Assembly: GCA_965218435.1 (NCBI GenBank)
Contig: CBDCKW010000009.1
Location: 480,001 to 544,000 of the forward strand
Length of the DNA stretch: 64,000 bases
Reading direction: 5' to 3'
Origin: Truepera sp.
GTDB lineage: Bacteria > Deinococcota > Deinococci > Deinococcales > Trueperaceae
The position numbers and the translations under genes are program-made. The notes under the pieces are model-generated. The model saw nothing but the letters and a program-made list of their open reading frames with translations. It did not search any database and had not been told where the DNA came from. Positions 1 through 64,000 of this stretch are shown here, in pieces. Numbering within the stretch: the first letter of the stretch is position 1; every line of letters begins with the position of its first letter.

Positions 1-233
1 GCGGCAACACTGCCACCGGGGGTATCAATCTCAAAAACGACCGCCAGGGGTTGTTTAGCTGCAGCCTCTTCTAACCTCGAGCTAACAAATTGCGCCGTCG
101 CAGGCGTAATCACACCTTCAATGGGTACGACCCAGACCGGACGCGGTGCCTGCGCCGCGCCCCAAGCTGCAGTGAGTAAGGTTAAAAACGCAAGGCTCCA
201 CCGTCTCCAAAAGCCTTTCGGTGTCTTTTGCAT
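1..233 (-). CDS. NfeD-family membrane-bound serine protease (ClpP class), 5' part only
   Basis: Own translation from ATG at 233: MQKTPKGFWRRWSLAFLTLLTAAWGAAQAPRPVWVVPIEGVITPATAQFVSSRLEEAAAKQPLAVVFEIDTPGGSVA. Signal peptide plus the NfeD IDTPGG motif; runs off the window edge. Confidence 0.8.
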   Translation of the reverse strand, partial: MQKTPKGFWRRWSLAFLTLLTAAWGAAQAPRPVWVVPIEGVITPATAQFVSSRLEEAAAKQPLAVVFEIDTPGGSVA

Positions 234-376
234 ATAGCTTAAGTATAAGGGTTGGTGCAGTACGAACGGCTCTATCCGGCGACGCACAGAAACTTCGCCC
301 ACTCACCCTCAGCCCACGCCCGACATTGCGGTCTATATGCCTGAACTGCGGCGGCGCTAGGCTATAATGGGACGTT

Positions 377-625
377 ATGCTTTTTCTTTCCCTTATCTGT
401 TTTGCGCTCGCAATCCTCGGGGTGTTCTGGGTTTTGCGCACCTTTAGAACCAGCGACGAAACGCCGACTGAACGCGCCGACCTCGACAAAGCGGGCGGTA
501 TCATCTTTACGGTGGTCTGCGTCTGTGTGGGCGGCGTCGCCCTCTATCTTTACGCGAGCGGCTTTTTGGCCCCGGCGCAAGGGCTCGAGCCCAACACCAG
601 CGTTCAGCTCGTTCAGCTTGTCTAA
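377..625 (+). CDS. Small two-TM membrane protein, hypothetical
   Basis: 82 aa with two hydrophobic segments; TATAAT at 363-368 lies 8 nt before the ATG. Confidence 0.65.
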   Translation: MLFLSLICFALAILGVFWVLRTFRTSDETPTERADLDKAGGIIFTVVCVCVGGVALYLYASGFLAPAQGLEPNTSVQLVQLV

Positions 626-741
626 ATACCTACAAGCCCAAGGTTTTATCCGTAAAGCTTGCTCGTATTTTGTACACCTTAAAGCCTGACTTTTTAGCGA
701 ACACCTCGCGGCGTTTCTAGCGAAGTCGGGCGAAACTTTTT

Positions 742-903
742 CTAGTCGTTAGGTTGAAGGTCGGTAAAGACCTGTCCCGAAAGTAAGTAGATGATATCGC
801 TAAGGTCAACCGCTTCTTCGAGGCAGCTCACTTCGATCTCGAGCTGCTGCTTTTCTGAGAGCGACCACCACCAGAGGAGGGCGTTGGGGGAAAGGTCTTT
901 CAT
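742..903 (-). CDS. Small acidic hypothetical protein (53 aa), not in the ORF track
   Basis: Own translation MKDLSPNALLWWWSLSEKQQLEIEVSCLEEAVDLSDIIYLLSGQVFTDLQPND*; -10-like TAAAGT 6 nt before the ATG. Confidence 0.5.
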   Translation of the reverse strand: MKDLSPNALLWWWSLSEKQQLEIEVSCLEEAVDLSDIIYLLSGQVFTDLQPND

Positions 904-1026
904 GCTCACACTTTACCGGCTAAGGTACAGGTTCTTAGGTAAAAGTTTGGCATCTGCAAGGCCATTTACGGATTGTGAAATACTCTACGGTTGAGCTAGT
1001 GTTCATCGGCAACGTTATTTAGTTCA

Positions 1027-2523: not shown

Positions 2524-2629
2524 GAAAGTTTTAGCTTAACCCGTCGGTGCTCTTACTTCCCTATGTTTGAAGCTTATAAAGAGTCAGCTCGAGCTTACAA
2601 CTGCTTACAGCGTCGCTACACAGGCGCTG

Positions 2630-10040: not shown

Positions 10041-10579
10041 GATCCCGGCAAGTTGTCAGGAAGGTACGTCAGCTGCCGGTAAAACGTATAAAGATAACGC
10101 GCCGAGGACAAACCTGCACCCCTTTAACTCATACGCCGCCGGATAACTGCTGTACCGACGCTCTAGACAGGTTCGTCAGCACCTTACGGCTCGAGGTTAA
10201 GTTGTTACGCCAAAGCGTAGCACGACCTCACACAAACGCGCAAGCACAATACTAAAACAGTGCTACAACTGTTAAAAAATGTGAGAAACAATTGTGAGGG
10301 GTGCGTTATCGGCTTGGTTTTGCCAAAACTTATACCCATTCGAACCGCTAGGTCAGGTACGGGACTACTGACTGCTTATACGGTTGTCTTCTAAGTACGC
10401 GGGACTTTTCTAAGCCAGCACGTCTTGCTTACTTCTTCGTGATCTGCTGCAAACGTCCCAAGCTGGTCTCACGCCAACGAAGTATGAACGCTGGCTACAT
10501 TGCAAGCCCAGCTTGGCGGCATGTTAAATCTCTCACTTTCGGCCCAGCGGTACGGCTGTGCTTGCTACACTGCGGGAGC

Positions 10580-13978: not shown

Positions 13979-14005
13979 CCCTCGAGCCCTACGCTCGAGG
14001 GATTT
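13979..14005 (+). terminator. Stem-loop built from two CTCGAG sites
   Basis: CCCTCGAGC-cctac-GCTCGAGGG followed by ATTT. Confidence 0.5.
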
Positions 14006-14706: not shown

Positions 14707-14789
14707 TCTCGAGTGTTGGTACGCATCTTCTCTGGCTATTCTCGGGGGCTTCTCCTTAAATCCCCCACAATAAAGTTAGAACTTGCATG

Positions 14790-25348: not shown

Positions 25349-25703
25349 GATCCAGTTTAGTCGGCTGTTCTCTGCGCAGCTGTTTTCCACACAGTTGATC
25401 TTTACCTCCAATAATCTTCACTTCCAAGCAGCGCAAGTTGTAGCTCTTAGACACGCTCAGTTCGGTGTCACGGTTGAAGTCTCGAGGCTTTGCTAAACGA
25501 CTTTTAGGCAGCAACAGCAACATATTTGACACGCCTGGGCTTTCGCCACCGCAGTTCATGTGCTCGTTAACCGCATAAGCCAACACAAAAAGGGCATTCT
25601 ATAGCAGTGCAGCACCAAAAATAGAGGCCGCAGAAAACGAAAGCAACCTCTTGTTGGCGTTACAAGCGAAAAACTGACAGTGGCTAAACGCTTGAAAATG
25701 CTG

Positions 25704-30706: not shown

Positions 30707-31031
30707 CCAAACCGTAAATAAAGGCAGAGTCTAAAAGCGGTTGTAAGACCGCCAGGCCAGTGCTTAAGAGCCGCCTACAAGCAACTAAATTGCATCCGTA
30801 AGACTCTAAAAGCATGTGTCAGACGGCTTTTGCGGCGTAACCGTAAAGTTTGCGGGTTTGCCTACGGCTCGCTTGGAACGTCACGGTTCAAGCCTTATGC
30901 GAGCCGGGGGTTCGTCACACCGGTCCGGCCGGTCTGATAAACTCGGCTATAACCCCGTACGCTTAGACGCTCGAGACAAGCGTTCAAGACCCAAGCTAAC
31001 CCAATCTAGTTGCGCTTAAAAGGTGGAGACG

Positions 31032-38155: not shown

Positions 38156-38256
38156 AGTGTTGATATCTCCCTCAGTAATGCGTTGGTGTAGAGGCTGTTT
38201 TAGGTGTTTCCCGTTGAAGTGATGCGCCGCTAAGCTAAGGCTCGAGTCAATAGCCC

Positions 38257-39021: not shown

Positions 39022-39071
39022 CTTGACCTCGCTTGTAATTGAGACGGTAACAGGGACTGCTCGAGCCCTTT

Positions 39072-39097
39072 TTAGGACTCATTCCGAATTAAGTATA
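39072..39097 (-). promoter_or_regulatory. Putative suf -10 element with adjacent palindromic operator
   Basis: TATACT (39097-39092) followed by TTCGGA-N5-TCCTAA (39088-39072). Confidence 0.4.
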
Positions 39098-39366
39098 CAC
39101 CGTGCGCCTATATGCGCCTAGTGTGCGGTTAGACAATCTATAGTAGTGGGGTAGGAATTAAAGCTTGGTCGGGTTGGAGACGTAGGTGAGGGATGAAAAC
39201 CGCCATTTGCAAAGAGCGTCAAATACAAGCAGCTCGAGCAAATTCATGAGCTTGTCTTCGGATACTAAAGTATCTGTGCTTGTCGCCACGCCGTAACTAT
39301 ACAAACGACCTTTTTTTCTACCGAGCTGCATAATTCCAAACAACGATTTAAGAAAGCTGCCAGAAC

Positions 39367-40299: not shown

Positions 40300-40485
40300 T
40301 CGTTACCTGCTTTGTGCTGCCCGAACGTACTATACCTTTTTCAGCCCTTATTGTCAGCTACGGCTCCGGCTATAGAAACCTTAGGAATCTTGTGGAAACA
40401 CCCACGTCACCTCCTTGCCCTGACGATCAGGGTTGCAGCGCCGAAGCCCTGTGCTTTCTAGGCCCCATACGTTAGGCTCGAGGAC

Positions 40486-41755: not shown

Positions 41756-42190
41756 TTAAATAGCTAGGCGCTCTGCTAAAAACCGAATCGCTGCGCCGTA
41801 GCCGTAAAACCCGAGCCCGGTAATGGTGCCGATACAAACGGCAGACAGATACGAGTGATGCCGAAACGTTTCCCTAGCGTACACATTTGAGATATGCACT
41901 TCAACAGCGGGGAGGGCGACACCTGAAACCGCGTCGCGGAGGGCGACTGAAGTGTGCGTCAGTGCGCCGAGGTTTAAGACGAGTCCGGTCACGCCCTCGG
42001 CGGCGGCCCCGTGAAGCCACTCGAGCAAGACGCCCTCATGGTTACTCTGGCGGCAGACAACGTTTGTGCCAACTGCTTCGCCCCAGCGTTCACATTGAGC
42101 CTCGAGGTCAGCGAGCGTCGCGTGACCGTAAACTTCGGGTTCGCGTTGTCCGAGCAAATTCAGATTGGGGCCGTTCAAAACCAAAATCAT
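41756..42190 (-). CDS. aroQ: Type II 3-dehydroquinate dehydratase
   Basis: NGPNLNLLGQREPEVYG, QSNHEG, EVHISN. Confidence 0.96.
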   Translation of the reverse strand: MILVLNGPNLNLLGQREPEVYGHATLADLEAQCERWGEAVGTNVVCRQSNHEGVLLEWLHGAAAEGVTGLVLNLGALTHTSVALRDAVSGVALPAVEVHISNVYARETFRHHSYLSAVCIGTITGLGFYGYGAAIRFLAERLAI

Positions 42191-42203
42191 ACAGGTTTTT
42201 TAA

Positions 42204-43834: not shown

Positions 43835-43845
43835 GCGCTACGTCC

Positions 43846-45000: not shown

Positions 45001-45043
45001 AGTACGAGCTTAGCACGCCCCTTCCGGCGGGGATTTTTGGGGG

Positions 45044-46755: not shown

Positions 46756-46771
46756 CGCCCCCTAAGGGTAA

Positions 46772-47914
46772 TCAGGGGGTCATCAAGAGCGTGTGACGAA
46801 CGTCGTCCTCAGTAAACTGTGCGCCTCGGTTCGTGAGATTGGTGAGCGTGAGCTTGGTTCCCGGCAGCGCCTCGCCGAGCGCCAGCAACACGGGCGTCGT
46901 ACTGTCTCCTACGCGGAAAATCGCGGTACCGGTGGCCATCGCCGTAAAGTGAACTTGGAGCGAACTGAGGGCGCGGCTGACCCGGTTGCCGCCCAAAGAT
47001 GTGAAATTTCCGTCACTTGGCCCATTACCTGTACCAAGCCCCAACGCGGTGAGCCCGGAGCCGAGGGCGACTTGTTGGGCGCTGCTGGGGACAGGGGACG
47101 CCGCCGCTATGGGCGCGGTGCCTAAGGGGGTCAGGCTCGAGGGCGCACGAATCGCAGCGAGGGTGTTGGGAGAGGCCAAGTCACCGGGTTGGGTACTCTG
47201 CACGCCTATCGCGCGGCCTAAAGGATCAGTTTTCAGGTTACCGGTAGCGGTGGCAGGGATACGCAAGCTGGCTCCGAGGCTTTTCGGCAGGGTCGGGCGG
47301 GCTGCTCGAGCCGGAGGAACCGGCGCGGTCGGGCGCGGCGCAGGTGTGGCGGCAGCTGGTGCCGAGGGTACCGGAGCTGTCAGGGAGGACGTTGGGGGCG
47401 CAGCAACCGGGGGTTGAGGCAGCGCAGGTGGCGCGGCGACAGGAGGGGCTGGTGGGGGCGCGGGTTCGGCGGCTGGCGGGAGTAGCAGCGGTGAAAAAGG
47501 GTTGAGGGTGCTGTCACCGCTCCCGGTCACGGGTGCCGGAACCTTGATCTTAGCCTGCTTTTTAGGCGGTTCGGTGACGAGTAAGGGCAGCTCTTCAACG
47601 CCGACGTCGCGGGCGACCGCCGGGGTTTCAGGGTCGGGTAGCAGGGGCAGTGCGCCGCTGCTTACGTCTGTAGGTTCTGCAGGTGTAGGCTGCTCGCTCC
47701 CGTTCGGTAACAGCGGGAGCGCACCGTCACTGGCGCTCGGCTCGGCTGGTGCTGGGTCGGTCGGCGCTGGGTTGACCGGCTCTTTTGCAGTGTCGGCGGG
47801 GATATCTTGAGCAGGCGGGTCATTAGGTGTGGCGGCGAAGGTGACGCCGCAAGGTAAGGTGCCCAGCGAGACTGCTAAAACCGCCAAGAGAACCGTGCGG
47901 GTGAGGCGCATCAC
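46772..47914 (-). CDS. Pro-rich pilus-assembly protein in the PilW position (Thermus/Deinococcus pilMNOWQ)
   Basis: Signal peptide, long Pro/Ala linker, NPFSPL motif, C-terminal beta domain; lies between pilO and pilQ. Confidence 0.65.
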   Translation of the reverse strand: MMRLTRTVLLAVLAVSLGTLPCGVTFAATPNDPPAQDIPADTAKEPVNPAPTDPAPAEPSASDGALPLLPNGSEQPTPAEPTDVSSGALPLLPDPETPAVARDVGVEELPLLVTEPPKKQAKIKVPAPVTGSGDSTLNPFSPLLLPPAAEPAPPPAPPVAAPPALPQPPVAAPPTSSLTAPVPSAPAAATPAPRPTAPVPPARAARPTLPKSLGASLRIPATATGNLKTDPLGRAIGVQSTQPGDLASPNTLAAIRAPSSLTPLGTAPIAAASPVPSSAQQVALGSGLTALGLGTGNGPSDGNFTSLGGNRVSRALSSLQVHFTAMATGTAIFRVGDSTTPVLLALGEALPGTKLTLTNLTNRGAQFTEDDVRHTLLMTP

Positions 47915-48597
47915 TGTACCTCCGTGTCTGAGGCGGGCGTGTCTGAGGCAGGCGTTTCCGGGGTCAAGGTGCCCTCGGCAGGTAGGGCGTCTGTGCCCGC
48001 GCCGGTATAAACGTAGACCGTAAAATCGTAAGACGCACTTAAGCTCGGGTCCGCGCCCCCATCGGTGGCGGCGTTTAGGCCGACGCGCTGCACGCGGGTA
48101 AAGCGGGGGAGCGCCTCCAACGCGCGTAAAAACCCGATCGTACGGGCGTAGTTGCCTTCGGTGGCGAGCGTAAAATTGAGCAACCTGACACCGGGCACGA
48201 CCTCGCTACCGGGGCCGCCGTTTTGCAGGCCCGTAAAACTCACTTTGGCGTCGCGGGCGGCGCTGCGCAGCTGATCGAGCAGCTCGGCCACTTCGTTTTC
48301 TTCGGGCAGTTGGGCCAAGAACACGTCACGCTCTTCTTTAAGCCGCGCGACCTCGGCGCGGAGTTCGGGCAGATTGGCTCTGGCGGAGCGGCCCAGCGCA
48401 ATGTCGGCCTCCAACGCCCCATTTTCGCTCCTCAACACCTCGAGTTGACCTTTGGTTGGTGTGTACAGATAAAAGTACCAGAGCATTCCGAGCAGTACCG
48501 ACACGCTGATGGCGACGAGCGCCAACTCGCGCCCGCGCAGCTTGAACCCGCCTGCACCGCTCGCACTCCCGGAGCCGAGTTTGGGTCCTGCCAGCAT
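47911..48597 (-). CDS. pilO: Type IV pilus assembly protein PilO
   Basis: One TM, coiled coil, QLPEENEVAELL, GNY..FL..LEALPR. Confidence 0.88.
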   Translation of the reverse strand: MLAGPKLGSGSASGAGGFKLRGRELALVAISVSVLLGMLWYFYLYTPTKGQLEVLRSENGALEADIALGRSARANLPELRAEVARLKEERDVFLAQLPEENEVAELLDQLRSAARDAKVSFTGLQNGGPGSEVVPGVRLLNFTLATEGNYARTIGFLRALEALPRFTRVQRVGLNAATDGGADPSLSASYDFTVYVYTGAGTDALPAEGTLTPETPASDTPASDTEVQ

Positions 48598-49289
48598 TAT
48601 TCTCTCCCCCCGTTAGCGGCAGTCTGAGTTTCCGAGGGTGTACCGACCTGCGCAGCTTGTTCAGGTTTGGTGCCCTCTAACGGGGCTGCCCCAATCGTCA
48701 GGTTAAAATTGTAAAATTTCGTTTCCGGGTCTTGTGACAGGTCGCTAAACGACACGGCGAAATTGGGCGCGGCTTGCAGCTTGCGGAGGTAGTTGGCGAC
48801 GACCTCGGTGCTACCGGCAATCCCGGAAACGCTCATTTCAGCGACCGCTTGGAGCCCTTCGTACATCTCTGCGCCGACGGGTTGGGCACTCGCCGAGGGG
48901 TCGAGGGTGCGCATCTCGAGCGCGGTAAAGGCCATCCGCGAGGCGAGCTTGGGACCGGGCGCAGGGCGCGTTTCGAGCATGGCGTAAAGCTGCCGTGACC
49001 AGAAGATACGGCCCGTCCGCACGGTCTGCGCGACGGTTGAGATACCAGCGAGTTCGCCGCGTTCGGCCCCCAGCGCCGCCTGTTCGTCGACAAAAGGTTG
49101 CAGCACGGCCTTTTCATTACGCAGTTCGGCCCCTTGCTCGGTCAAGCGGCCCTTTTCGCTGGAGACCTGCATCTGTAAAAACCCGCAGGTCAGTAAGGTC
49201 ACAAGTGGCACCGCCACCGCGACCCCTTGCCACGGGTCGAAACTCCGGCCGCGGCGCAGCGTTTTAGGGAGGAGGTTGACGTTAATCAA
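48597..49289 (-). CDS. pilN: Type IV pilus assembly protein PilN
   Basis: INVNLLP motif, TM, coiled coil. Confidence 0.88.
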   Translation of the reverse strand: MINVNLLPKTLRRGRSFDPWQGVAVAVPLVTLLTCGFLQMQVSSEKGRLTEQGAELRNEKAVLQPFVDEQAALGAERGELAGISTVAQTVRTGRIFWSRQLYAMLETRPAPGPKLASRMAFTALEMRTLDPSASAQPVGAEMYEGLQAVAEMSVSGIAGSTEVVANYLRKLQAAPNFAVSFSDLSQDPETKFYNFNLTIGAAPLEGTKPEQAAQVGTPSETQTAANGGRE

Positions 49290-50454
49290 GGCCGAGGGCT
49301 CCCCTTAAGGCGAGACCGAGCGGGACGCCGAACTCCGGCGCAATACTTTCTAAGTACGCCGCTTCGTACCGCTCCCCCTGAATAACGCTCAGCCAGGGAT
49401 TGCCGAACTCGACTTTGAAGCCGAGCGCACGGCCTATCGCCTGATCTAAACCGCGCAGTTTCGAGCCGCCGCCGGAAAGGTACATCTGGTTGATACTCGC
49501 GTCCCCCGACTGCACGCGAAAAAACTCCAAGCTGCGGCGAATCTCGGTGGTGAGGTCGTTTAAGGTTGGGCGCAGCGCCTCGTGCACCCGCACCGGCGAA
49601 AAGCGTTCGTTCTGGGTGTTGGTTGACAGTGACGCTTCAGTTTCACTCGGCATAATGGCGCTGCTGTGACCGATTTTGACCTCTTCGGCGGTGTCAAAAT
49701 CTAAACCGAACGCGCGTTGTAAGGCGCTGGTAAAGTCGTCGCCGGCGACGCCTAAGTTGCGGTTCATGACCACGCGTTCACCGCGTACCAGCGTGACGGT
49801 GCTTGACGACGCCCCGACCTCTAAAATCGCGCCGATCTCGCCCTCTTCGGTGTATTTTTCGTCAAAGATGGTCGTGCGGTTAAACTTTTCGCCTTGCAGG
49901 GACGCTTTGAGCGAGCGCAGCAGGGCAAATGGTTTGATGTCGATAACGGTGGGCTCGAGCCCCGCTTTTTTCAGCCCTTCAGTGAGCTGCGTCACTATAT
50001 CGAGGCGGGCGGCGGCGATGACGACTTCAACATCGCTGCCGTCGGCCACGTCGCCGGGGTTGTCTAAAATATAGTGATCCATCGCTACTTCGTCGAGTGG
50101 AAAAGGAATATACCGCTCCGCCTCCCAGGGAACAGCCTTCTCGAGCTCTTTTAAGGGCATTTTGGGAATGTGGATGTTGCGGGTGATCGCCAGGCGGTTA
50201 CTGACCGCGGTCACGACAAAGCGGCGGCTGATTCCAGCGTCCTTAAAGAGCGCGTCGAGTTCTTTGGCGAGCCCTTCAGGGTCAACGATCTGGTCGTCTT
50301 GTACCAAACCGGGGGGCAGGGGGCGCAGCGCGAGTGCCTCGAGCTTCGGCGGGGTGCCCTGCAGCTCAACCACCTTGAGGCTACTCGTCCCGATCTCGAG
50401 CCCGACCGCGACGGTTCGTGGATTAAAAAGACGTGTAAATGAAGACCAGTTCAT
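49282..50454 (-). CDS. pilM: Type IV pilus assembly protein PilM
   Basis: GLEIGTSSLK, EAERYIPF, EIRRSLEFF, LSGGGSKL, LGLALRG. Confidence 0.95.
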   Translation of the reverse strand: MNWSSFTRLFNPRTVAVGLEIGTSSLKVVELQGTPPKLEALALRPLPPGLVQDDQIVDPEGLAKELDALFKDAGISRRFVVTAVSNRLAITRNIHIPKMPLKELEKAVPWEAERYIPFPLDEVAMDHYILDNPGDVADGSDVEVVIAAARLDIVTQLTEGLKKAGLEPTVIDIKPFALLRSLKASLQGEKFNRTTIFDEKYTEEGEIGAILEVGASSSTVTLVRGERVVMNRNLGVAGDDFTSALQRAFGLDFDTAEEVKIGHSSAIMPSETEASLSTNTQNERFSPVRVHEALRPTLNDLTTEIRRSLEFFRVQSGDASINQMYLSGGGSKLRGLDQAIGRALGFKVEFGNPWLSVIQGERYEAAYLESIAPEFGVPLGLALRGALGLD

Positions 50455-53637: not shown

Positions 53638-53777
53638 AAACCCTCCTGTTGCGGCGCACGTGCGCCGCGTTTAACCCAGCATAGGGCGAACGTGCAAAAA
53701 AAACCACCGCAGGTCGCTGTAAATCGCCTCGAGTACGCTAAAAAGCTCCCCTCGGGAAGCTTGATAAAAGGCTCAGC

Positions 53778-56700
53778 CTAAATCTGACTTTTGCCCAACG
53801 CGGGTGAGCGGCCTGAAGGTAACGGGGTGCGTTCGTCTTCTTTAATGACGTCACTAACTCTGTCCGGCTGAGCTGCACCGGCCTGGTCGCGTTCGTAGCG
53901 TTTGTGTTCAAACTGATAAAATGCCGCCGGGACGACGTAAAAGGTCAGGAGCGCCGAGGTCAAGACGCCGCCTAAAATGACTAAGCCGAGCGGATACCGA
54001 AACTCGCTGCCTTCGCCGAGACCTAGGAGCAGCGGCAAGCTGATCACCACGACCGTCGAGGTCGTCATCAAGATGGGGCGAAAACGCACGGTAGCCGCCT
54101 CGAGTAGCGCCTCACGCAGCGGTACCCCGCGTTTAGTCTCCGAAAGTGCAACGTCGAGGAGCAAGATCGCGTTTTTGGTCACCAGACCGATCAGCATCAC
54201 CACGCCCAAAATGCTGATGATGTCGAGCGAGGTGCCCGTAAAGTAAAAGAGCCAGACCGCCCCGACGAGGGCGAGCGGCACCGTCAGGAGGATATAAAGC
54301 GGGTACTTAAACGAGTTAAACTGACTGCCGATAGCGAGGTAGTTGAGCAGCAACGCCAGACCGAAGGCAATTGGCGCGTAATAGAGCAGGTCGCCTAAAA
54401 GGTCGAAGTTCGACCCTTGAATCTGGGAGACGCGGTTATCTAACACGCCTGCTCTCTGTAACCGCGTTTTGGCGGTCGCCGTCACCTGCGAGAGGTTGCT
54501 CCCCGGCGTCAGCTCGGCGCTCAGGGTCGCGCTGTACGCTTGGTCGGAGCGGTTGATGGTCGCGGGCGCAGACCCCGACTTAAAGCTGCCGAGAGCGGAC
54601 AGCGGCAGGCTGCTCTGCAACGCCGGAGCCTGAATCGGTAAGCTTAAGAGGCTCTGTTCGTCACGGATTAAAAGTGGATCGGCGCGAACCCGAATCGGGG
54701 TTTCGTCGCCGCCTTGCCGCAACCGGCCCGCCTCACTGCCAACGTTATACGCCGAAAGCGTATTAAAGATGTCGCTGTTCGTCAAACCGGTGCCGTCGAG
54801 CTGCGCGGGGTTGACGACGAAGACGCGTTCGTCGGTGGTGCTCGACAAGTCCGAAGTCACATTACGCAGCCCCGGCACCTTTTCCAGCACGGTTTGCGCT
54901 TTTTCGCTCCGCTTACGGAGCAGATTCAGGTCGGTTGAACCGAGTGACAGGGTGTAACCGGTGCCTCCGGGTGGCCCGCCGGAGCCCTCGTTGCTGAGGT
55001 TGAGTTCAGCTTCGGGGAAGGGCTTAAGGACTTTGTTGAGTTCTTTCTCGAGCGCCACAATCGATTCTGTCGTGTCGAGGGTGCGCTCATCTTTGGGAAC
55101 GAGTTGGACGCTTAGGTCAGCCCGTTCGGACGAGGAGCCGCCCAACACGTCCCCTGCACCCACCGTGACCTGCACGGTATCAACTTCAGGGTCGTTTAAG
55201 AGCCGGTTTTCCAACCTGCCCGCAACGCGGTTCGTCTGGTTGAGGCTGGTGCCAGGGGGAAGCTCGAGCGTCCCGCCAATTAGACCCGAGTCGTCCGGGG
55301 GCTGAAAGTTAAAGCCGATCTTGGGAAAAACCCAAAAGAGGCTGCCGAAAAGTGCAACTGAAATCCCCAGCACCAGCCATGCATGTGACAACACAAACCG
55401 CAGCGAACGGACGTAGCCGCGTCTGGCCCCGCCCACCAAAAAGTTGCCGGTGCGGTAGAGCCCTAAGGCCAACACGCCGAGCACGTAGAGTACGAGCCGG
55501 ACAAGGTAACGGAGTAAAAAGAGCGCGACCGGTACAGCTAACAGCCACAGCAGCATGAGGGGTTGCTGCGGTGCGAGGCGGAGGTATATGGCCGCGCCCA
55601 CCCCGACGATCACGACCCAAAACCACACCCGGCGGAGGTTACGAACGCCCCAACGTGCGTCGATGCCGAACTTACGCGCTGCGCCGCCGAGTTCGCGGGG
55701 ACCGGGGGGGAGTGGGTCGGGGGAGAGGGCCAAACGGACGGTTAAAAAGAACATCGCCTCGAGGTACGAGAAAGCGACGGCGGCGGCCATCGTCACACCG
55801 AACTGCTGAAAAAACTGGCCGATCACACCCGGCAACAGTGAAATCGGGATAAAGACCGCGAGCAGTGAGAGCGTCGCGGCGAGTACGGCAGTGCTGACCT
55901 CACCCGCGCCTTTAATCACCGAATCGCGCCGGGACATCCCCTCTTCGCGGTAGCGGTCAATATTTTCGGCGACGACAATCGCGTCGTCAACGACCAGACC
56001 GATAGCTACGGTGATCGCCAAGAGCGTGATGATGTTAAAGGTAAAACCGAAAAAATTGATGATAATGAGTGCGCCTGCGATCGAAACCGGAATCGCCAGC
56101 ACCACGGCGAGCACCGACCCTAACCGCCCGGTAAAGAGCAAAACGATCAGCGATACGGCAAAGGCCGCCAACACCGTTTCGGTCAGCGTGTCGTTGACGC
56201 TCGAGGCCACAAACACCGACGAGTCCCCGACGATTTCAGTACGGTAGCCTTTGGGTAGTTTGAAGTCAGCCAGCGTTTTGCGCAGGTTGCTCGCCGCAGC
56301 AACCGAGTTTTCCCCTGAAAGCTTGCGCACGTCTAAGAGCACCACCGGTTCGCCGTTAAGCCGCGCGTAGGTGGTCTGATCTTCAGACGCGTCGCGCACT
56401 GTAGCGACGTCCCCAACCCGGACGCCCCTGGCCGAATCAACCCGAATCTGCTCGATGTTGCGGAGGTTTGAGGGCGTCGCCCGCCCCGCTAACAGCAGCC
56501 GGTTGTCCGAAACCGTCAGGCTCCCGGCGGATTTGTCTACTGCCGACGCACCGATCGCGCCGGTCACGGCTTGCGGCGTCAGGCCATATGAGTTGAGCTG
56601 CGCCGGATCGAGCAAGACCTGAATTTCACGCGCCGAGGGGCCGACCACCGACACGTCAGCTACGCCGTCAACGCGGCGTAGGACGGGTTGCAATTCGTCT

Positions 56701-57176
56701 TCGGCAAACTTTTGGATGGTACTCAGGCCGACCCCCGGCGCAGCGACGGCGACGCTCAAGATAGGCTGGTCGGACGGGTCGAACTTCTGCACGTTCGGCG
56801 TGTCGGCACCGTCGGGCAAAAGTGACGCGACGGCGTTGACGCGTCCACTTACGTCAATGGCCGCTTCATTGACGTCAACATCTGCGTCAAACTGAGCGAT
56901 GACGAAACTAAAGCCTTCGTTCGAGACCGAGGTGACCGAGCTGATCCCCGGCAGTGTAGCGAGTTGTCCCTCTAAAGGTTCAGACACGCTGCGCGCGACT
57001 TCCTCTGGCCCTGCGCCCTGATACTGCGTGGTCACGGCGACGACTGGAATTTCAATCTCAGGTAAGAGGTCAATCCCAACGTTGAGTGCGCTGATCACGC
57101 CAAACAGCACGAGTGCGCCGAAAACGCTAAAGGTCAAGACATAATTGTCAACAAAAAACTGAATCAGCCTCTTCAT
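53778..57176 (-). CDS. RND efflux transporter, AcrB/HAE1-like
   Basis: GLVVDDAIVVAENI, GLVTKNAILL, RFRPILMT. Confidence 0.95.
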   Translation of the reverse strand: MKRLIQFFVDNYVLTFSVFGALVLFGVISALNVGIDLLPEIEIPVVAVTTQYQGAGPEEVARSVSEPLEGQLATLPGISSVTSVSNEGFSFVIAQFDADVDVNEAAIDVSGRVNAVASLLPDGADTPNVQKFDPSDQPILSVAVAAPGVGLSTIQKFAEDELQPVLRRVDGVADVSVVGPSAREIQVLLDPAQLNSYGLTPQAVTGAIGASAVDKSAGSLTVSDNRLLLAGRATPSNLRNIEQIRVDSARGVRVGDVATVRDASEDQTTYARLNGEPVVLLDVRKLSGENSVAAASNLRKTLADFKLPKGYRTEIVGDSSVFVASSVNDTLTETVLAAFAVSLIVLLFTGRLGSVLAVVLAIPVSIAGALIIINFFGFTFNIITLLAITVAIGLVVDDAIVVAENIDRYREEGMSRRDSVIKGAGEVSTAVLAATLSLLAVFIPISLLPGVIGQFFQQFGVTMAAAVAFSYLEAMFFLTVRLALSPDPLPPGPRELGGAARKFGIDARWGVRNLRRVWFWVVIVGVGAAIYLRLAPQQPLMLLWLLAVPVALFLLRYLVRLVLYVLGVLALGLYRTGNFLVGGARRGYVRSLRFVLSHAWLVLGISVALFGSLFWVFPKIGFNFQPPDDSGLIGGTLELPPGTSLNQTNRVAGRLENRLLNDPEVDTVQVTVGAGDVLGGSSSERADLSVQLVPKDERTLDTTESIVALEKELNKVLKPFPEAELNLSNEGSGGPPGGTGYTLSLGSTDLNLLRKRSEKAQTVLEKVPGLRNVTSDLSSTTDERVFVVNPAQLDGTGLTNSDIFNTLSAYNVGSEAGRLRQGGDETPIRVRADPLLIRDEQSLLSLPIQAPALQSSLPLSALGSFKSGSAPATINRSDQAYSATLSAELTPGSNLSQVTATAKTRLQRAGVLDNRVSQIQGSNFDLLGDLLYYAPIAFGLALLLNYLAIGSQFNSFKYPLYILLTVPLALVGAVWLFYFTGTSLDIISILGVVMLIGLVTKNAILLLDVALSETKRGVPLREALLEAATVRFRPILMTTSTVVVISLPLLLGLGEGSEFRYPLGLVILGGVLTSALLTFYVVPAAFYQFEHKRYERDQAGAAQPDRVSDVIKEDERTPLPSGRSPALGKSQI

Positions 57177-58441
57177 ACGCCGCCTCCTAAAGTCGTAGCA
57201 TTTGTCTGGCCCTCACCCAAAACCTCGACCGGGGTACCGGGATTGAGGTCGGCGGGCAGGGGGTAGATCACGCGTGCGCCTTCACTAAGCCCGGACACCG
57301 CGACCTGTGCGCCGCCTTCGCTGAGCAGGTTGACGCGTACCTCTCTGGCGCGGCCCCCCTGCGCGACCAACACGCTGACTTGGCCGCCGTTTTGCCGAAG
57401 TGCGCCGCTTGGAATCAAGATGCCTTTGGCTAACACGAGCTGATAGTCAAACTGCGTGACCGTCCCGTTGGGAATCGGCGTGTCGGACGGATAGATGTTG
57501 GCCTGAACCTCGACCAACCGGCCGCCTTGCGTCTGCGAGGTCTGCGTGACCTGCGCAGCGTAGTCGAGACCGTTATACGGCAGCCAGATACGGCCCTGCT
57601 GAAGTAGCCGCTGCGCGTCTTCGGGAGCAACACTGAAACTGGCAAGCTGCCGGTCGGTGCTGACCAGACGAAACGCAGGGCTGCCTGCACCGATAAACTC
57701 GCCCTCTTCAACCAACACCTCAGCGACCTCACCCGCGTAAGGGGCGGTCAGTTTGGCGTCGGCAAGGCTTTGTTGCGCCTGCGCGACCTGCGTTTGGGCT
57801 TGCTGCACCTGCAAACGCAACAGTTCCAAATCTTCTTCCGGTGCACGTTGGCTCTGGTCGGCAGCGGCTTGAGCTTGTAAAAGTGTCGTCTGCGCCTGCT
57901 CGAGCCCCACCTTGAGCTGGTCAAAGTCATTCTGTGAAATCCCGCCTGCTGCTAAGAGCGACTGACCCTCGGTAAACCGCTGTTTAGCAATGGTTAAACT
58001 CGTCTGCGCAGCCTGAAGCCCCGCGTCACTCTGTGCGGTGTTAAGGCCGCTCGAGCGTTCGGCACTTTGCAGGTTGACCCGGGCGGTTTGGAGTGACAGC
58101 TGCGCGTTGTCGAGCCCGAGCTGAAGCGCGTCGTCGTCGAGTTGAATCACGACCTGACCGGCTTTAACCTGTGCGCCGCTCCGGGCGAGAATCTGTTTAA
58201 CCTGGCCGGTCGTCCCGGCGGACACCTGACTCTCTTGGAGCGGCTCAATCGTCGCCGAGGCGCTCCGGGTCACGCTCAGCGTCCCGGTTTTGGCCCGAAT
58301 TACCCGGACACTGCGGCTCAGTTGGGACTGGCTTTGGGTTTGAGTCTGGCTCGAGCCAGTGGTACTGTCCTGGGCTTTGACCGCACACGCGGCGAGCGGG
58401 AGCAGGGCGAGGAGGATAGGTAGGGCAGTGCGGGCGTTCAT
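57173..58441 (-). CDS. RND periplasmic adaptor (membrane fusion lipoprotein)
   Basis: LAAC lipobox, lipoyl halves (GQVKQI..G.QVKAGQ; LTAPYAGEV), long helical hairpin. Confidence 0.92.
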   Translation of the reverse strand: MNARTALPILLALLPLAACAVKAQDSTTGSSQTQTQSQSQLSRSVRVIRAKTGTLSVTRSASATIEPLQESQVSAGTTGQVKQILARSGAQVKAGQVVIQLDDDALQLGLDNAQLSLQTARVNLQSAERSSGLNTAQSDAGLQAAQTSLTIAKQRFTEGQSLLAAGGISQNDFDQLKVGLEQAQTTLLQAQAAADQSQRAPEEDLELLRLQVQQAQTQVAQAQQSLADAKLTAPYAGEVAEVLVEEGEFIGAGSPAFRLVSTDRQLASFSVAPEDAQRLLQQGRIWLPYNGLDYAAQVTQTSQTQGGRLVEVQANIYPSDTPIPNGTVTQFDYQLVLAKGILIPSGALRQNGGQVSVLVAQGGRAREVRVNLLSEGGAQVAVSGLSEGARVIYPLPADLNPGTPVEVLGEGQTNATTLGGGV

Positions 58442-59496
58442 GTGGGTCTCCCGGCGGCTGTGGCTAGGTCGGTGCTGCTAAACGGACTCCCGAGTGGCAC
58501 GAGGCTGCCGGTTTGCAGCGCGAGCAGCGCGTTTAAGTAGTCGCTCCGGGCGCTCTCTGCCGCGAGTTCAGCTTGCAAAGTCGTAAGCTGCGCCTGGTCA
58601 AACTCAATCTGGGAGATGAGCCCGCCGCTCAGCCGCTGCTGCTGGGTGCGCAGCCTTACCTGGGCATTTTGCAACGCGCTGAGGTTTAGCCGTAAGGTCG
58701 CGCGGGCGTTTTGGGCCTGGGTGTAGAGGTTACGCACCTGCAACCGAAAGCTCCGCTGCGCGTCCGCTAAGGCGCTCTCCGCGCTCGCCCGCTGGCTCCG
58801 GGCGGTGTCGATCTGGGCTTGGGCCGCGTACAGCGGGTCTAAGACGTCGGTCCCTAGTTGGGCGAGGGCGGCTTGCTGTTTGACGCTGAGTAGGTCGGGA
58901 TGGCGTTCGGCACTCCTAAGGGCGGCGTCTAAGGGCGGCAGCTCGGGCAACACCCCCTCGGGAACCGCCTCGAGGTCACCGGCGGCAACCTCTTCACCTG
59001 AAACGCTCGTAAAGTTGTTGAGCGCCAGTGCTTGCGCGTCCATGGCGGCGCGAAGGCCGTTTTGCGCCTGGTCGAGTGACGCCTGCGCGTCGTCCAGGTC
59101 GAGCCGGGTGGCGCTGCCGTTCTCGAGGCGTATCTTGGCGACCCTCAGCGAACGGCGGCTCACGTCTAAACTCTTCTGAGCCAGCTCAACCTGGGCGTTC
59201 GCGCCCAGCACGCCTGTATAGGCGCTTGTGAGGTCCCCGGCGGCGGTGTAACGGGTGCGCTCGAGGCTCGCTTGGGCGAGCGCCAACCGCTGCTCGGCCT
59301 GCAAGGTGTCGGCGCGTACGGCGAGTGGGTCTCGCTTTACCCGGTCCAAGTTTGCTTGTGCGTCTTTAAGTTCAGTCTGCGCGGTGACGACGCCGCTACG
59401 CGTCGAGGTGCGTGCTAGCGTTTGCGTCAAGGTGAGCGCGTAGGCGTTGGCGGCTAAGAGCGTCAGCAGCGTGAGGATAAATAAACGGCGTCTCAT
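58438..59496 (-). CDS. TolC-family outer-membrane efflux protein
   Basis: Signal peptide, RLENGSATRLDL, HPDL, GGLISQIEF. Confidence 0.82.
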   Translation of the reverse strand: MRRRLFILTLLTLLAANAYALTLTQTLARTSTRSGVVTAQTELKDAQANLDRVKRDPLAVRADTLQAEQRLALAQASLERTRYTAAGDLTSAYTGVLGANAQVELAQKSLDVSRRSLRVAKIRLENGSATRLDLDDAQASLDQAQNGLRAAMDAQALALNNFTSVSGEEVAAGDLEAVPEGVLPELPPLDAALRSAERHPDLLSVKQQAALAQLGTDVLDPLYAAQAQIDTARSQRASAESALADAQRSFRLQVRNLYTQAQNARATLRLNLSALQNAQVRLRTQQQRLSGGLISQIEFDQAQLTTLQAELAAESARSDYLNALLALQTGSLVPLGSPFSSTDLATAAGRPT

Positions 59497-60965
59497 CGTA
59501 GGGTCTCCGAAGGGGGCAACGCGTAAAGCTGATAAAGGTCTAAGAGGGCGCTCAGGGTGGTGAGTTCGCTGCTGCGGCGCTGCAAATCAGCTTGTAACAG
59601 GTCTAAAAGTGAGGTCTGAGTCTCGAGCGGGGTGCTTAAGCCCAAATCCAAACGGGTGACGTTTTCTTGATAGGTCGTGCGGGCGTTTTGAAAGGTGAGA
59701 CGGTCGAGCGCCGCGTTTTGCGCTGCTTTGGTGTAGGCCGCTCTCGAGGTCGTCTCTTGCAACGCCCCGCCCTGCTGCGCCGCCTGTAAACTCGCCTGCG
59801 CCGCCGCCGCCTGACGTTTGACGGCGTTTAACGCGTCGAGCGCCCCGACTGAAATCTTTGCTGAAACGCCGAGTTGCAGGGTGCCGTTGACGGCACTTTG
59901 CGGCAAGGTGCGGCCCGGGTCGCGGTACGAAAAGCCGACGCTCGGTTGCAGCGTCCGCGATTCCAACGAGGCGGTCACCGTCGAATAATCCGAGACGTTC
60001 CACGCGTAGCTCGCCGAGGCGACGGGGAGGATTTCACGCTGCGCCGCTGAAATCTGCAGCGCGGCGAGCTGCGTCTGCAGCTGCGTCTGCGTCACACTGA
60101 GGGGCGTACGCGGCCCCGGAGGGGTGAGACTAGCGAGCGCCTGATAGCTCGGCGCTGGAACGTCGCCGACTAAACTTTGCAAGTTAAGGCGCGCACTTTC
60201 TGCGTCCAGCTGCGCGTTACTTAAAGCGGTCCGCGCTGAGAGCAGCGCAGCTTCGGCGTCGCGGAGATCACGCCTGTTCGCGGCCCCTTTGCGTACTCGC
60301 AACCGGGCCGCTTCCAGGCCCTGCGTCGCCGCGGCGACGCCCTCTTGCGAAAGTCTGACCGAGCGTTCGGCGAGCCGTGCTTGCAAGGCCGCGACGAGCG
60401 CCCGCGCTTCTAAACCCGTTCGCGCGTTGCTGAGGTCGAGCTGGCTCGTTTGCAGCTCAATCCGGCGCTGCGTCAACAAGTCGGCGGTGTCACCAAACGG
60501 AAAAGGCCGAAACACCAGCGTCGCCCCGAGCTGATAGCCCGTTTCGGAGATGGCCGTACCCAAGTCGCCTGCGCCGGGAGCCGCGCCCGGACCGGTGGGA
60601 TCAGTGGGAACTTGAGCCGGGTTCAGTCCTGTCAGCGAGTCGTCTAACGCAAAGCGGCTATAACCGCCGGTCGCCTCGAGCGACACCGGGTCGCGCGCCG
60701 CCCGCAGTTGCAACTGCGCAGCCTCGAGCCCTGCTTGCGCCGCGAGCAACTCGGGATTGCCCCCGAGTGCTCCTAAAAAGCGTGTCAGCGACTGCTCGGC
60801 CTGAGACTGTTTGGCCTGAGACTGCTTAGTTTGAGACTGCACGGGGGTAGCGGCGGGCTGAATAGCTTGCGCTGCGGCGAGCGGCGCACTTAGCAGCGTC
60901 GCCGCGCCTAAAAAAGATAAGTCTCGCCTGAAGCGGCGTAAAACGGTCATAATCCTCCGAAGCAC
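59493..60965 (-). CDS. Second TolC-family outer-membrane efflux protein
   Basis: Signal peptide, NPELLAA, RVRKGAANRRDL, RLDLGLSTPLE. Confidence 0.82.
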   Translation of the reverse strand: MLRRIMTVLRRFRRDLSFLGAATLLSAPLAAAQAIQPAATPVQSQTKQSQAKQSQAEQSLTRFLGALGGNPELLAAQAGLEAAQLQLRAARDPVSLEATGGYSRFALDDSLTGLNPAQVPTDPTGPGAAPGAGDLGTAISETGYQLGATLVFRPFPFGDTADLLTQRRIELQTSQLDLSNARTGLEARALVAALQARLAERSVRLSQEGVAAATQGLEAARLRVRKGAANRRDLRDAEAALLSARTALSNAQLDAESARLNLQSLVGDVPAPSYQALASLTPPGPRTPLSVTQTQLQTQLAALQISAAQREILPVASASYAWNVSDYSTVTASLESRTLQPSVGFSYRDPGRTLPQSAVNGTLQLGVSAKISVGALDALNAVKRQAAAAQASLQAAQQGGALQETTSRAAYTKAAQNAALDRLTFQNARTTYQENVTRLDLGLSTPLETQTSLLDLLQADLQRRSSELTTLSALLDLYQLYALPPSETLR

Positions 60966-61258: not shown

Positions 61259-61380
61259 TCGGCACGACCGGAAGATCTGAAAGCATAAAAATTCAAACGC
61301 GCTGCCGAGCAAATCCTGCTAGAGTGCGTTAGTTATATGCGAAGCTACAACCACACCTACGGCACGCTGAAGGGATTTTT

Positions 61381-63624
61381 ATGAAACTTGTCCGTCCCAG
61401 TCTACTCGTCTTGACACCGCTGGTGTTGACGCTCTCTCTGGGCGCTGCGTCCGCGCAGAACACCGCGAACACGGGGCCAAAGGGAAATCTAAGCGCGGCG
61501 ATCCGCACGCTGAGCACTCGCCTAAATAACGCCAAACCGACGCCCACCGAACTCGAGCAGCTCAGCACCTTACAAACGCGGCTAGACACACTGACCCAAG
61601 CCACTGAAAACGCTCAAAACGCCGCCGTAGCGGACGCAAAGCAAGCTCTGACGCAAGCACAAAACGCGCGTAACGCGGCGCAAACCCGCAGCGAAACCCT
61701 GCAAAAGAACTTGAGCGCGGCGCAAGCTCAGGTGCAAAAGCTAAGTGCCTCGCTGACAAACGCTCAAACCCGAGCCAAAGACAATCAGACCCAAAACGAC
61801 ACCTTGACCCAGCAGCTTTCGGCGGCCAAAGAGCAGCAGAACCAGCTGCAAACTCAGCTACAAGAAGCACAAAATCAGTTGAGCCAGGTTCAAACTCGGG
61901 TCAAAACGCTGCAAGGGAACCTCGAGACCGCACAAAACCAGGCGGCAGAGCGCCAGACGCAAAACGAGCAGCTGAGCACCCGGTTGCAACAGTCAAACTC
62001 TCAAGGAGAAACCCGCCAGCGTAGTCTCGAGGCCGCCCAAAACCAGATCGAAAAGCTGAACGCTGAGCTTAAAACTGCTCAAAATAACGCTAAAACTGCG
62101 CAGGACAACGCGGCGCAGCAAAAAAACCAACTCGGTACGGTGACCCAGCAACTCGAGACGACTCAAAACCAAGTTAAAGAGCAGGGCACGCAGAACAATA
62201 CGCTGACCCAGCAGTTAAACACGGTCAAAGCGCAGCAGAGCCAGCTGCAAACGCGACTTCAAGATGCGCAAACCCAGGTGCAACAGCTGACGACAAACTT
62301 AAAGACGGCGGAGCAGCAAGCCGAGCAGCGCGGCACTCAAAATGAGCAGTTGACCAACCGTTTGAGCACCGCTCAACAAAGAGTTCAAACACTGACCGGA
62401 AACTTACAAACGGCTCAGGATCAGCAGGGAACGTTGCAAAACCAACTGCAAGCGGCTCAAACCCAGGTGCAACAGGCTAACGCCAACCTCAAAACGGCCC
62501 GGAATCAAGCGAGTGAACGTCAGGCGCAAAATGAAGCTTTAACGAAGCAGCTCTCAGCTGCGAAGGCGCAGCAGAGCCAACTGCAAACGCAACGTAAAGA
62601 CGCGCAGGCCCAGGTGCAAAAGCTGACTGCCGACCTCAAAACGGCGCAAACTCAGGCCAGCGAACGTCAAACCCAAAACGAAGACTTGACCAAGCAGCTC
62701 CAAGGGGCCAAAACGCAGCAGAATCAGCTGCAAACTCAGCTGAGCGAAGCTCAAAACCGGGTTAAAACGCTGACCACAAACCTCGAGACCACGCGAAATC
62801 AAGCCAGCGAACGCCAAACGCGAAATGAAACTCTGACCCAGCAGCTACAAGCCGCCAAAGAACAGACCACCAAGCTGCAGAGCAACCTGGCCGATACTCA
62901 AACACGTGTCAAAATGCTGAACAACCAGCTGGAGCAAGCGCAGGGCGCACGCGATACGTTTCAAACGAACCTGCAGCAAGCTAAAAATGCCCAAGAAAAC
63001 GTCTCCCAAAAGTTAAACAGTGCGCAGACTCAACTTCAACAGGCGCAGGGAACACTCAAAACGACGCAAACCCAATTGCAACAGGCAAAAACTCAGGTGC
63101 AAACCGCCCAGAGCAACCTGCAAACCAAAGACCAACAGCTGACCGAGGCGCAGGCGCAGCTCAAAACCGCTCAGCAGAAAAACAGTACGCTCAATCAGCG
63201 AGTTACGAACCTCAATAACGAACGCGAGACCTTGGCGCAGCAGCTGAGCGCCGCGACGGGTGCAAGCCAGTCACAACTCTTAAAGCCGGTTGAGGCGCAG
63301 CTGAAAGACGCCCGCGCCCGTGCGGCAACCCTTTCGGAGCAATTCAGCAAGTTTTTAGTGGTTTCGCCGAGCCTAGCTGAACTCAGTGACGCACAGCGAA
63401 ACACTTACAACTCGCTGCGGCAGAACCTCAAACGGACGCAAGAAAACGTCGCGCGGCTTACGGGCGCGCAGGCGGCCTATACCGTCCGCTCCGGCGATTC
63501 GCTTTCAAATATCGCGCTGACCTTTTACGGTGACGGCAACCGCTGGCCCGACATCTTAGCGGCGAACCGTTACCTCGCGAACGCCAAGTACCCTGACATC
63601 GGGACGGTCCTCGTTATCCCGTAA
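61381..63624 (+). CDS. Secreted Gln-rich long coiled-coil protein with a C-terminal LysM domain
   Basis: Signal peptide (ASA-Q); ~650 aa of heptads; YTVRSGDSLSNIA..YG..W..I..AN..IGTVLVIP. Confidence 0.88.
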   Translation: MKLVRPSLLVLTPLVLTLSLGAASAQNTANTGPKGNLSAAIRTLSTRLNNAKPTPTELEQLSTLQTRLDTLTQATENAQNAAVADAKQALTQAQNARNAAQTRSETLQKNLSAAQAQVQKLSASLTNAQTRAKDNQTQNDTLTQQLSAAKEQQNQLQTQLQEAQNQLSQVQTRVKTLQGNLETAQNQAAERQTQNEQLSTRLQQSNSQGETRQRSLEAAQNQIEKLNAELKTAQNNAKTAQDNAAQQKNQLGTVTQQLETTQNQVKEQGTQNNTLTQQLNTVKAQQSQLQTRLQDAQTQVQQLTTNLKTAEQQAEQRGTQNEQLTNRLSTAQQRVQTLTGNLQTAQDQQGTLQNQLQAAQTQVQQANANLKTARNQASERQAQNEALTKQLSAAKAQQSQLQTQRKDAQAQVQKLTADLKTAQTQASERQTQNEDLTKQLQGAKTQQNQLQTQLSEAQNRVKTLTTNLETTRNQASERQTRNETLTQQLQAAKEQTTKLQSNLADTQTRVKMLNNQLEQAQGARDTFQTNLQQAKNAQENVSQKLNSAQTQLQQAQGTLKTTQTQLQQAKTQVQTAQSNLQTKDQQLTEAQAQLKTAQQKNSTLNQRVTNLNNERETLAQQLSAATGASQSQLLKPVEAQLKDARARAATLSEQFSKFLVVSPSLAELSDAQRNTYNSLRQNLKRTQENVARLTGAQAAYTVRSGDSLSNIALTFYGDGNRWPDILAANRYLANAKYPDIGTVLVIP

Positions 63625-63645
63625 AAAACGAGCGTCAAAGCCAGC

Positions 63646-63676
63646 TAAAGAGGCCGCATCCGGTCTCTTTATTTTT
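63646..63676. terminator. Terminator between convergent genes
   Basis: TAAAGAGGCCG-catc-CGGTCTCTTTA-TTTTT. Confidence 0.75.
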
Positions 63677-63686
63677 GGGCTCCAGG

Positions 63687-64000
63687 TTAAACTTTGGGGT
63701 AAAACGCTGCAAGTTCAGCGCGTGTAGGCGGGTCGGCACCGGGCCGCGTACAGTTAAGCGCCGCCGCCGCCGCCGCAAAAGCAAGCGCGTCTTGCCATAC
63801 GGTGTCCGGCAGCGCAGCCAAGCCGGTCGTTTCGCCCGTCTCGAGCAGTCTGACGAGCAGCGCACCCATAAAAGTATCGCCCGCACCGACGGTATCGGCA
63901 ACCTCAACTTGGGGAATGGGCACCTCGAGCCGTCCCTGGGAACGCAGCAGCACCGTGCGGGCACCGCCCTGTGTGACGATTACCGCTTCGGGACCTCGGC
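63687..64000 (-). CDS. PfkB-family carbohydrate kinase (fructokinase-like), 3' part only
   Basis: VIVTQGG, VADTVGAGDTF, GADPP; the frame stays open to the window edge. Confidence 0.92.
   Translation of the reverse strand, partial: RGPEAVIVTQGGARTVLLRSQGRLEVPIPQVEVADTVGAGDTFMGALLVRLLETGETTGLAALPDTVWQDALAFAAAAAALNCTRPGADPPTRAELAAFYPKV

Follow-up and report, generated by a model that had tools for sequence, protein, structure and literature searches.

The CTCGAG Hexamer in the Window and in the Genome

The window analysed here (the whole stretch of 64,000 nucleotides, 58.3% GC) belongs to a Truepera sp. genome of 4.81 Mb in 9 contigs, referred to as G000; other G numbers denote comparison genomes, with G004 and G005 as congeners. 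The subject of this study is the palindromic hexamer CTCGAG, of which 128 copies are found over positions 1..64000, while base composition predicts about 20. An earlier note, made from the letters of the window, had put the number at 125–130 against about 20 predicted, and the count bears this out. By our own gene calls, 95 sites are read as Leu-Glu, 21 lie in the two remaining frames and 12 in intergenic DNA (8,220 bp in total). The site at 76..81 (minus strand) lies in a gene assigned to NfeD by Pfam, where it reads Ser(TCG)-Arg(AGG). Single intergenic sites, given without strand, are located at 2588..2593, 10190..10195, 14708..14713, 25481..25486, 30970..30975, 38241..38246, 40477..40482 and 53728..53733. 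One intergenic pair, with sites 13 bases apart, occupies 13981..13999, and another (39060 and 39233) spans 39060..39238. The 12 coordinates listed in the earlier note are all correct; the site at 39233 is an addition to them.

The window sites are part of 9,883 copies in G000 (2.06/kb, or 2,056 per Mb, one in about 490 bases), which makes CTCGAG the top-ranking hexamer by count. The observed-to-expected copy ratio (O/E) is 5.2 under a second-order Markov model and rises to 7.1–7.7 after the weight of the motif itself is subtracted from the background. The earlier note had proposed codon-preserving shuffles and a maximal-order Markov model as checks. In shuffles that preserved each protein and its codon usage (10 shuffles of 3,820 genes, out of 4,805 calls), the excess was kept in all frames, with 6169 observed versus 1927 shuffled copies, 477 versus 73, and 1287 versus 239 (3.2-, 6.5- and 5.4-fold). 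Intergenic DNA of G000 contains 755 copies in 413,790 bp (1.82/kb), while 116 (order 2) or 203 (order 3) are expected, and here too CTCGAG ranks first among hexamers, so that the excess at non-Leu-Glu and intergenic sites survives genome-wide. Under the maximal-order model CTCGAG is still the top hexamer of the genome (z = 70.6), yet with a ratio of just 1.24, since CTCGAG accounts for 70% of all CTCGA pentamers; on the window alone the word falls outside the top 15. Frequent extension of the sites had also been claimed. A flank bias toward GCTCGAGC does exist, but this 8-mer is merely as common as maximal-order expectation (5016 versus 5125 in G000), and the flank preference around CTCGAG varies among lineages.

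Leu-Glu dipeptides are 1.25-fold over expectation in G000 (Glu-Leu 1.07, Val-Glu 0.80), and CTC GAG encodes 54% of them. The Glu codon following CTC is GAG in 95% of cases, compared to 36–57% after other C-ending codons except TTC (87%). Single-base variants of CTCGAG are not enriched in G000, with the mild exception of GTCGAG. These data demonstrate that a force at the DNA level, acting on the exact hexamer wherever it is located, holds CTCGAG in the genome.

Placement of the Sites and Mobile DNA

CTCGAG sites are spread evenly over G000, with a Fano factor of 0.9–1.1 and a maximum of 6 sites per 500-bp window of the chromosome, and their spacing is slightly more regular than that of control words. 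No bias toward promoters, regions upstream of starts or particular gene parts was detected in G000, and the density is unchanged in genes with low GC content at third codon positions. A periodicity test, simpler than that of Xu et al., revealed no significant period between 8 and 200 kb in G000 (top power 9.2 versus 9.3 for the 95th random percentile), and a control word scored equally high. The G000 chromosome, in which the position of dnaA was not located, shows no origin-like cluster of CTCGAG.

The one 16S gene examined has no CTCGAG, and five multi-copy insertion sequence (IS) families contain 1 copy in 5,026 bp versus 10.4 expected. Two small plasmids of G000, contigs C6 (about 13 kb) and C8 (about 10.5 kb), exceed the chromosome with 5.2 and 3.2 sites/kb; each of them was assembled with duplicated sequence. 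The Meiothermus phage MMP17 carries 87 copies versus 22 expected.

Range of the Motif across the Order

Named proteins related to one encoded in the window come from Trueperaceae and Truepera records and are 68–87% identical to it. We surveyed 201 genomes of the order, for which family (f) and genus (g) labels of the survey are used. The uncultured family f5 is densest (4.3–6.5 sites/kb in 12 of 12 genomes), and values of 2.5–3.4/kb were found in the genera g42 (4 genomes) and g44, 1.4–3.5/kb in 18 genomes of the genus Meiothermus, 0.7–2.9/kb in 15 f3 genomes, 0.3–2.6/kb in 59 Trueperaceae, and 0.6–1.6/kb in 30 genomes of g17, which appears to be Thermus-like. The 58 genomes of f2, which appears to be Deinococcus-like, have at most 0.27/kb. 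On sampled stretches the Markov-corrected O/E is about 80 in f5, 6–9 in congeners of G000 and Meiothermus, about 3 in g17, about 2 in high-GC Trueperaceae and below 1 in f2. Density among the enriched families differs more than twenty-fold, and the trait is graded and old across the order. The proposal of the earlier note that CTCGAG is a genome-wide and lineage-wide word of the highly iterated palindrome (HIP) kind is supported by the counts for G000 and for the genomes of the order. The ratio CTCGAG/GAGCTC serves poorly for normalisation, since some genomes avoid GAGCTC. In two stretches of G001 (L207-L208, 40 kb), CTGCAG is over-represented about 3.3-fold, more than CTCGAG, and is possibly a second iterated word.

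Conservation and Substitution Pattern

Orthologues were aligned between G000 and two congeners (178 for G005 and 243 for G004, from 400 kb each), with an identity of 0.55–0.56 at four-fold sites. At positions of coding DNA with conserved Leu-Glu, CTCGAG was retained in 183 of 224 and 241 of 297 cases (81–82%), while 14 control codon pairs were retained in 7–72%; phi was 0.58–0.59 for CTCGAG versus 0.05–0.46 for the controls. The variants one base off, CTCGAA, CTGGAG and CTTGAG, were never common to both genomes and CTAGAG was seldom so, while states two bases off were shared in 10–52% of cases. In a codon model (950 pairs), gain of CTCGAG is about 10-fold up and loss about 5-fold down, and a Leu-Asp control showed no such effect; with the baseline fixed, the model required a special term for CTCGAA.

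TTCGAG and CTCGAA are two- to three-fold depleted throughout the genome in contexts in which a change to CTCGAG would be silent; if it would alter the protein, depletion is slight or absent. In the latter context, TTC makes up 0.49 of the Phe codons preceding GAG versus 0.42–0.47, and the value for xCT CGA A is 0.10 versus 0.087. That the depletion is largely limited to silent contexts speaks for directed conversion and against selection acting on TTCGAG/CTCGAA as such. Congeners and Meiothermus have the depletion as well.

A Candidate Methyltransferase and Its Lost Nuclease

The earlier note expected an enzyme outside the window, namely an adenine methyltransferase like those of XhoI and PaeR7I. 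An orphan candidate of 564 residues is indeed encoded outside the window (G000:C9:3672240-3673931, minus strand), among housekeeping genes close to dnaG; it belongs to the M.Eco57I-like family and not to the PaeR7I type. Its Pfam domains are N6_Mtase, Eco57I and M_Eco57I_C. It has a gamma-class N6-adenine fold with an NPPF motif and invariant G43 and G112-F116, and the order typical of this class, S-adenosylmethionine-binding motif I, then the NPP(Y/F) motif IV, then a target-recognition domain, is present. A structure model (pLDDT, the predicted local distance difference test, 89) matches CamA, M.BseCI and M.TaqI, and a sequence search of the PDB with the single sequence gave no match. Orthologues are present in 30 of 59 Trueperaceae and in 14 of 18 Meiothermus-genus genomes, and were absent from f2, f3 and f5 in the survey of the order. 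Truepera radiovictrix also encodes an orthologue (ADI13773.1). In G004 (L024) and G012 (L034) the orthologue is split by frameshifts, through decay or an assembly error.

Outside the order, this methylase family usually precedes a gene of 230–300 residues (47 loci), whose product resembles XhoI. The fold predicted for this partner is that of type II restriction enzymes (NucC Z 10.5; BstEII and PspGI Z 8.7), and Foldseek returned no significant match for it; Pfam has no dedicated model for the family. The congener G005 retains an intact 222-residue partner gene 3′ of the methylase (L369:1510-2178, G005:C8), in a genome with 8,892 CTCGAG sites. In G000, about 760 bp of the nuclease region are replaced by about 80 bp, and nuclease fragments persist in G087 and G012. 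A full-length partner was found in 1 of 44 sampled carriers of the order; the profile of the partner family detected G005 (E 1e-67) and nothing in G000. A Pfam XhoI search of G000 was blank, as were its controls. The gene histories document that the methylase was retained and the nuclease lost.

In 41 gene pairs of other hosts, CTCGAG occurs 23 versus 45 times in the cassette and 119 versus 106 times in the flanks, and among 43 palindromes none shows a stronger cassette-specific depletion (ratio 0.45, nominal p 1e-4). The ancestral pair would have consisted of a gamma-class adenine methyltransferase and an XhoI-like PD-(D/E)xK nuclease, and in other hosts the genes of the pair appear to avoid CTCGAG. 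Blow et al. 2016 (PMC4752239, table S3) list M.Mhy14884I, M.Mch9957IV and M.Mru1279II as orphan CTCGAG methyltransferases producing N6-methyladenine (m6A). They report m6A at CTCGAG in Marinithermus hydrothermalis, Meiothermus ruber and M. chliarophilus, and the entries used here list no cognate nuclease, and no CTCGAG enzyme for M. silvanus. These enzymes share the bacterial order and the orphan state with the G000 candidate and act on the hexamer that is its probable target, a likeness of motif and order; the sections used describe methylation, not genome-wide over-representation of CTCGAG. Cassette avoidance, the XhoI-like partner, the complementary distribution of enzymes described below and these methylomes together make CTCGAG the target that the orphan enzyme of G000 probably methylates.

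Turnover of Methylases

A second methylase, of the PaeR7I type, was found in g44, in four Trueperaceae devoid of the Eco57I-like enzyme, and in exactly the four Meiothermus-genus genomes that do not have it. All 18 genomes of this genus have either the Eco57I-like (14) or the PaeR7I-type enzyme (4), never both. G001 has both, and an XhoI fragment follows the PaeR7I-type gene there. In G162 (L248:5409-8951, C4), a PaeR7I-type methylase lies beside an IS and directly upstream of a 5′-truncated Eco57I-like copy with the first 110 residues missing, which looks like replacement in place. A third, TaqI-like methylase occurs in one f3 genome. The relation of the Eco57I-like enzyme of G000 to the PaeR7I-type and TaqI-type enzymes of its relatives is distant. 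Neither of the two CTCGAG-linked methylase families was detected in f5 (12 genomes) or g42 (4 genomes). A search for other methylase families in some f5 and g42 genomes found no shared candidate of the CTCGAG kind, D12 and N6_Mtase families not being part of this search.

In the f5 genus g18 (L114:1444-3782, L115, L116) a conserved C5 methylase is followed by a second methylase-like gene. This pair was ruled out as the cause of the f5 excess, since it is confined to one genus (5 of 12 f5 genomes); GGCC and CCGG are strongly avoided in g18. Many g17 genomes (L371-L388) share a single locus at which a methylase-like gene adjoins one for a nuclease with weak similarity to the XhoI-like family. 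Besides the candidate, the methylases of G000 comprise type I, type III and IIG-like genes, two C5 and one D12; all lie in mobile-looking loci and are set aside here rather than excluded. Most other palindromic hexamers are avoided in G000 (O/E 0.01–0.07 for GGCGCC, GGGCCC, TTTAAA, AGGCCT, GGATCC, AGATCT, TCGCGA and GTCGAC), and this avoidance exceeds what its present methylase genes explain.

Comparison with Known Systems

Cyanobacterial HIPs are the closest parallel. Elhai 2015 (PMC4390886), a cyanobacteria-only survey, gives 300–2,700 copies per Mb for HIP1 and 1,000–2,000 for alternate HIPs, with a matching methylase found for each HIP. Conservation and periodicity of HIP1 were described by Xu et al. 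2018 (PMC5861425), and a methylation-dependent gain in transformation through HIP1 has been reported (10.1101/2024.09.10.611283, PMC13756078); the proposed roles are chromosome structure or improved transformation. Like these words, CTCGAG is a GC-rich palindrome with about 2,000 copies per Mb, present in all frames and intergenic DNA and conserved between genomes, and in G000 a candidate orphan methyltransferase accompanies it. With regard to abundance, frame independence and conservation it has the features of the HIP class, and it is not HIP1. The hexamer is unrelated to HIP1 (GCGATCGC) and occurs in another phylum; CGATCG and GATC, which are linked to HIP1 proper through GATC and CGATCG methylases, are avoided in G000. 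O/E is 5–8 here versus 15–300 for HIP1, one-off variants are depleted and unshared while the HIP1* variants are conserved, and the simpler test used here detected no significant periodicity (10–90 kb for HIP1). Moreover, CTCGAG offers no GC step for methylation, which Elhai's model needs, and, unlike in cyanobacteria, there are enriched lineages in which no matching methylase was found.

In the XhoI/PaeR7I restriction-modification systems the nuclease adjoins the methylase, while in G000 it is deleted, and the host genomes amass the site rather than avoid it. DNA uptake sequences and Chi sites are non-palindromic 8–10-mers whose accumulation can result from biased uptake or recombination and which can change proteins; CTCGAG resembles them as a genome-wide word and differs as a palindromic hexamer. 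A hot-spring methylome study (10.64898/2026.06.24.734251) mentions CTCGAG. A full-text search, with most subscription literature and REBASE outside its reach, found no paper on CTCGAG over-representation in this order. New here are the Trueperaceae case, the enzyme with a lost nuclease, the turnover among unrelated methylases and the substitution pattern.

The reason for HIP1 has been an open question for three decades, partly since it was one case in one phylum, and CTCGAG provides a second case with another word. It offers graded density over about 200 genomes, a motif-free sister family, and natural combinations with and without methylase and nuclease. Cultured relatives carry the motif, so that drive versus selection, and the methylase as cause versus consequence, are directly testable. 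The textbook rule that hosts avoid their own restriction sites is inverted here.

Cause or Consequence

In other phyla, hosts of this methylase family contain 152 CTCGAG versus 161.5 expected, hence the methylase is not sufficient for the excess; in view of f5 and g42 it does not appear to be necessary either. Taken together, this leads us to think that the motif is the reason for which the methylases were retained, and that the drive comes from another factor. The claim that the enzyme outside the window underlies the excess is, in this respect, unsupported. We tentatively favour a molecular drive by CTCGAG-specific repair or recombination, methylases having been kept because they protect or mark the sites. 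A host mismatch-repair or recombination factor would recognise CTCGAG and resolve heteroduplexes toward it. Existing sites would rarely be lost, and one-off variants, chiefly TTCGAG and CTCGAA, would be converted to sites if the protein permits. With about 10,000 XhoI sites the genome would be highly exposed to XhoI-type nucleases, and lineages may therefore keep a CTCGAG adenine methyltransferase after loss of the nuclease, unrelated enzymes serving in different lineages. The orphan methylase may add to the drive and would not be required for it across the order. In a wider form, which we regard as possible and put forward with reserve, a sequence-specific process of repair or recombination arose in Deinococcales independently of cyanobacteria and writes and maintains CTCGAG all over the genome, with enough force to change proteins, and at least three unrelated restriction methylase families were then domesticated in succession to shield or mark the sites. 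On this reading, one congener retains an intact nuclease for a site that is present about 8,900 times in its genome.

Several results weigh against a drive with retained methylases. The driving factor was not found; in particular, Vsr (PF03852) was not detected in G000 or in 29 of 30 relatives, in a search whose controls were positive in 3 of 14. The substitution models fail to separate selection, conversion and protection, which lie within 6–9 log-likelihood units, and for CTCGAA a model of selection against it has a slight advantage over one of conversion (3096 versus 3113). The estimate of CTCGAA depletion moves with the control chosen (0.36–0.59), and TTCGAG depletion was not seen in f5 or f3, so that this signature is not universal. 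With regard to the enzyme, the partner nuclease resembles XhoI weakly (HHalign probability 63%; best Pfam E 0.037), homology among the 41 cassettes means that they are not independent, and CAGCTG is also low (0.34) in loci with the gene pair. CAGCTG as the target is weakened by its equally low level in the flanks, which is host-wide and hence not cassette-specific, by the lack of avoidance in G005 (0.87), where the nuclease is intact, and by avoidance scattered over genomes with and without the enzyme.

Other explanations account for part of the data. Selection for binding, with CTCGAG required at a roughly even density by a protein of the nucleoid, of uptake or of recombination, gives the best of the one-parameter models (S about 3.9). 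It is in line with retention of sites between congeners and with the slightly regular spacing, and ComEC is present in 5 of 5 genomes tested, with type IV pilus genes in the window. Reversible selection alone would not, however, deplete one-off variants, yet TTCGAG and CTCGAA are depleted in silent contexts; ComEC is also found in Deinococcus and Thermus controls, while Deinococcus-like genomes are free of the motif. Considering also that no significant period was detected and the more than twenty-fold range of density among enriched families, we consider this explanation unlikely, although it deserves attention. An Elhai-type ratchet, in which a new CTCGAG on the daughter strand is methylated by the orphan methyltransferase and then used as template in methyl-directed repair, would link excess to enzyme. 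CTCGAG/GAGCTC is at least 4 in 17 of 34 Trueperaceae with a CTCGAG-type methylase versus 2 of 25 without, a modest link (genus-level p = 0.024, kin not being independent), and TTCGAG depletion occurs in methylase-bearing lineages. Trueperaceae with and without methylase nevertheless do not differ in CTCGAG per kb (p = 0.24), several carriers have an O/E of only about 2, carriers in other phyla lack an excess, and f5 and g42 are strongly enriched without either enzyme, which renders the ratchet improbable.

A regulatory or replication signal read via the methylation state, like Dam-GATC or the Nocardia origin cluster, is a still more distant prospect. Blow et al. 2016 describe active orphan methylases that place m6A at CTCGAG in Marinithermus and two Meiothermus species, and for Nocardia an origin marked by clustered CTCGAG, but in G000 no 500-bp window of the chromosome exceeds 6 sites (dnaA not being located) and no excess lies upstream of starts. 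The notion that the excess simply follows from Leu-Glu content, codon-pair preference or short-range composition could draw on the 95 Leu-Glu sites among the 128 of the window and on the O/E of only about 2 in high-GC Trueperaceae. For G000 it is refuted by the greater excess in both non-Leu-Glu frames and between genes, by the preference for GAG after CTC over that after other C-ending codons (TTC excepted) and by the unenriched variants, of which GTCGAG is the mild exception.

Other Genes of the Window

An Rfam scan of the window gave no match. The minus strand carries pilM-pilN-pilO, an unnamed gene and a secretin gene, then aroC, aroK, aroB and aroQ (41756-50454), a usual type IV pilus/competence cluster. 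Genes for RND efflux, with two outer-membrane factors, a membrane fusion protein and an AcrB-type pump, follow on the same strand (53778-60950). On the plus strand, 61381-63624 encodes a coiled-coil protein of 747 residues with a C-terminal LysM domain.

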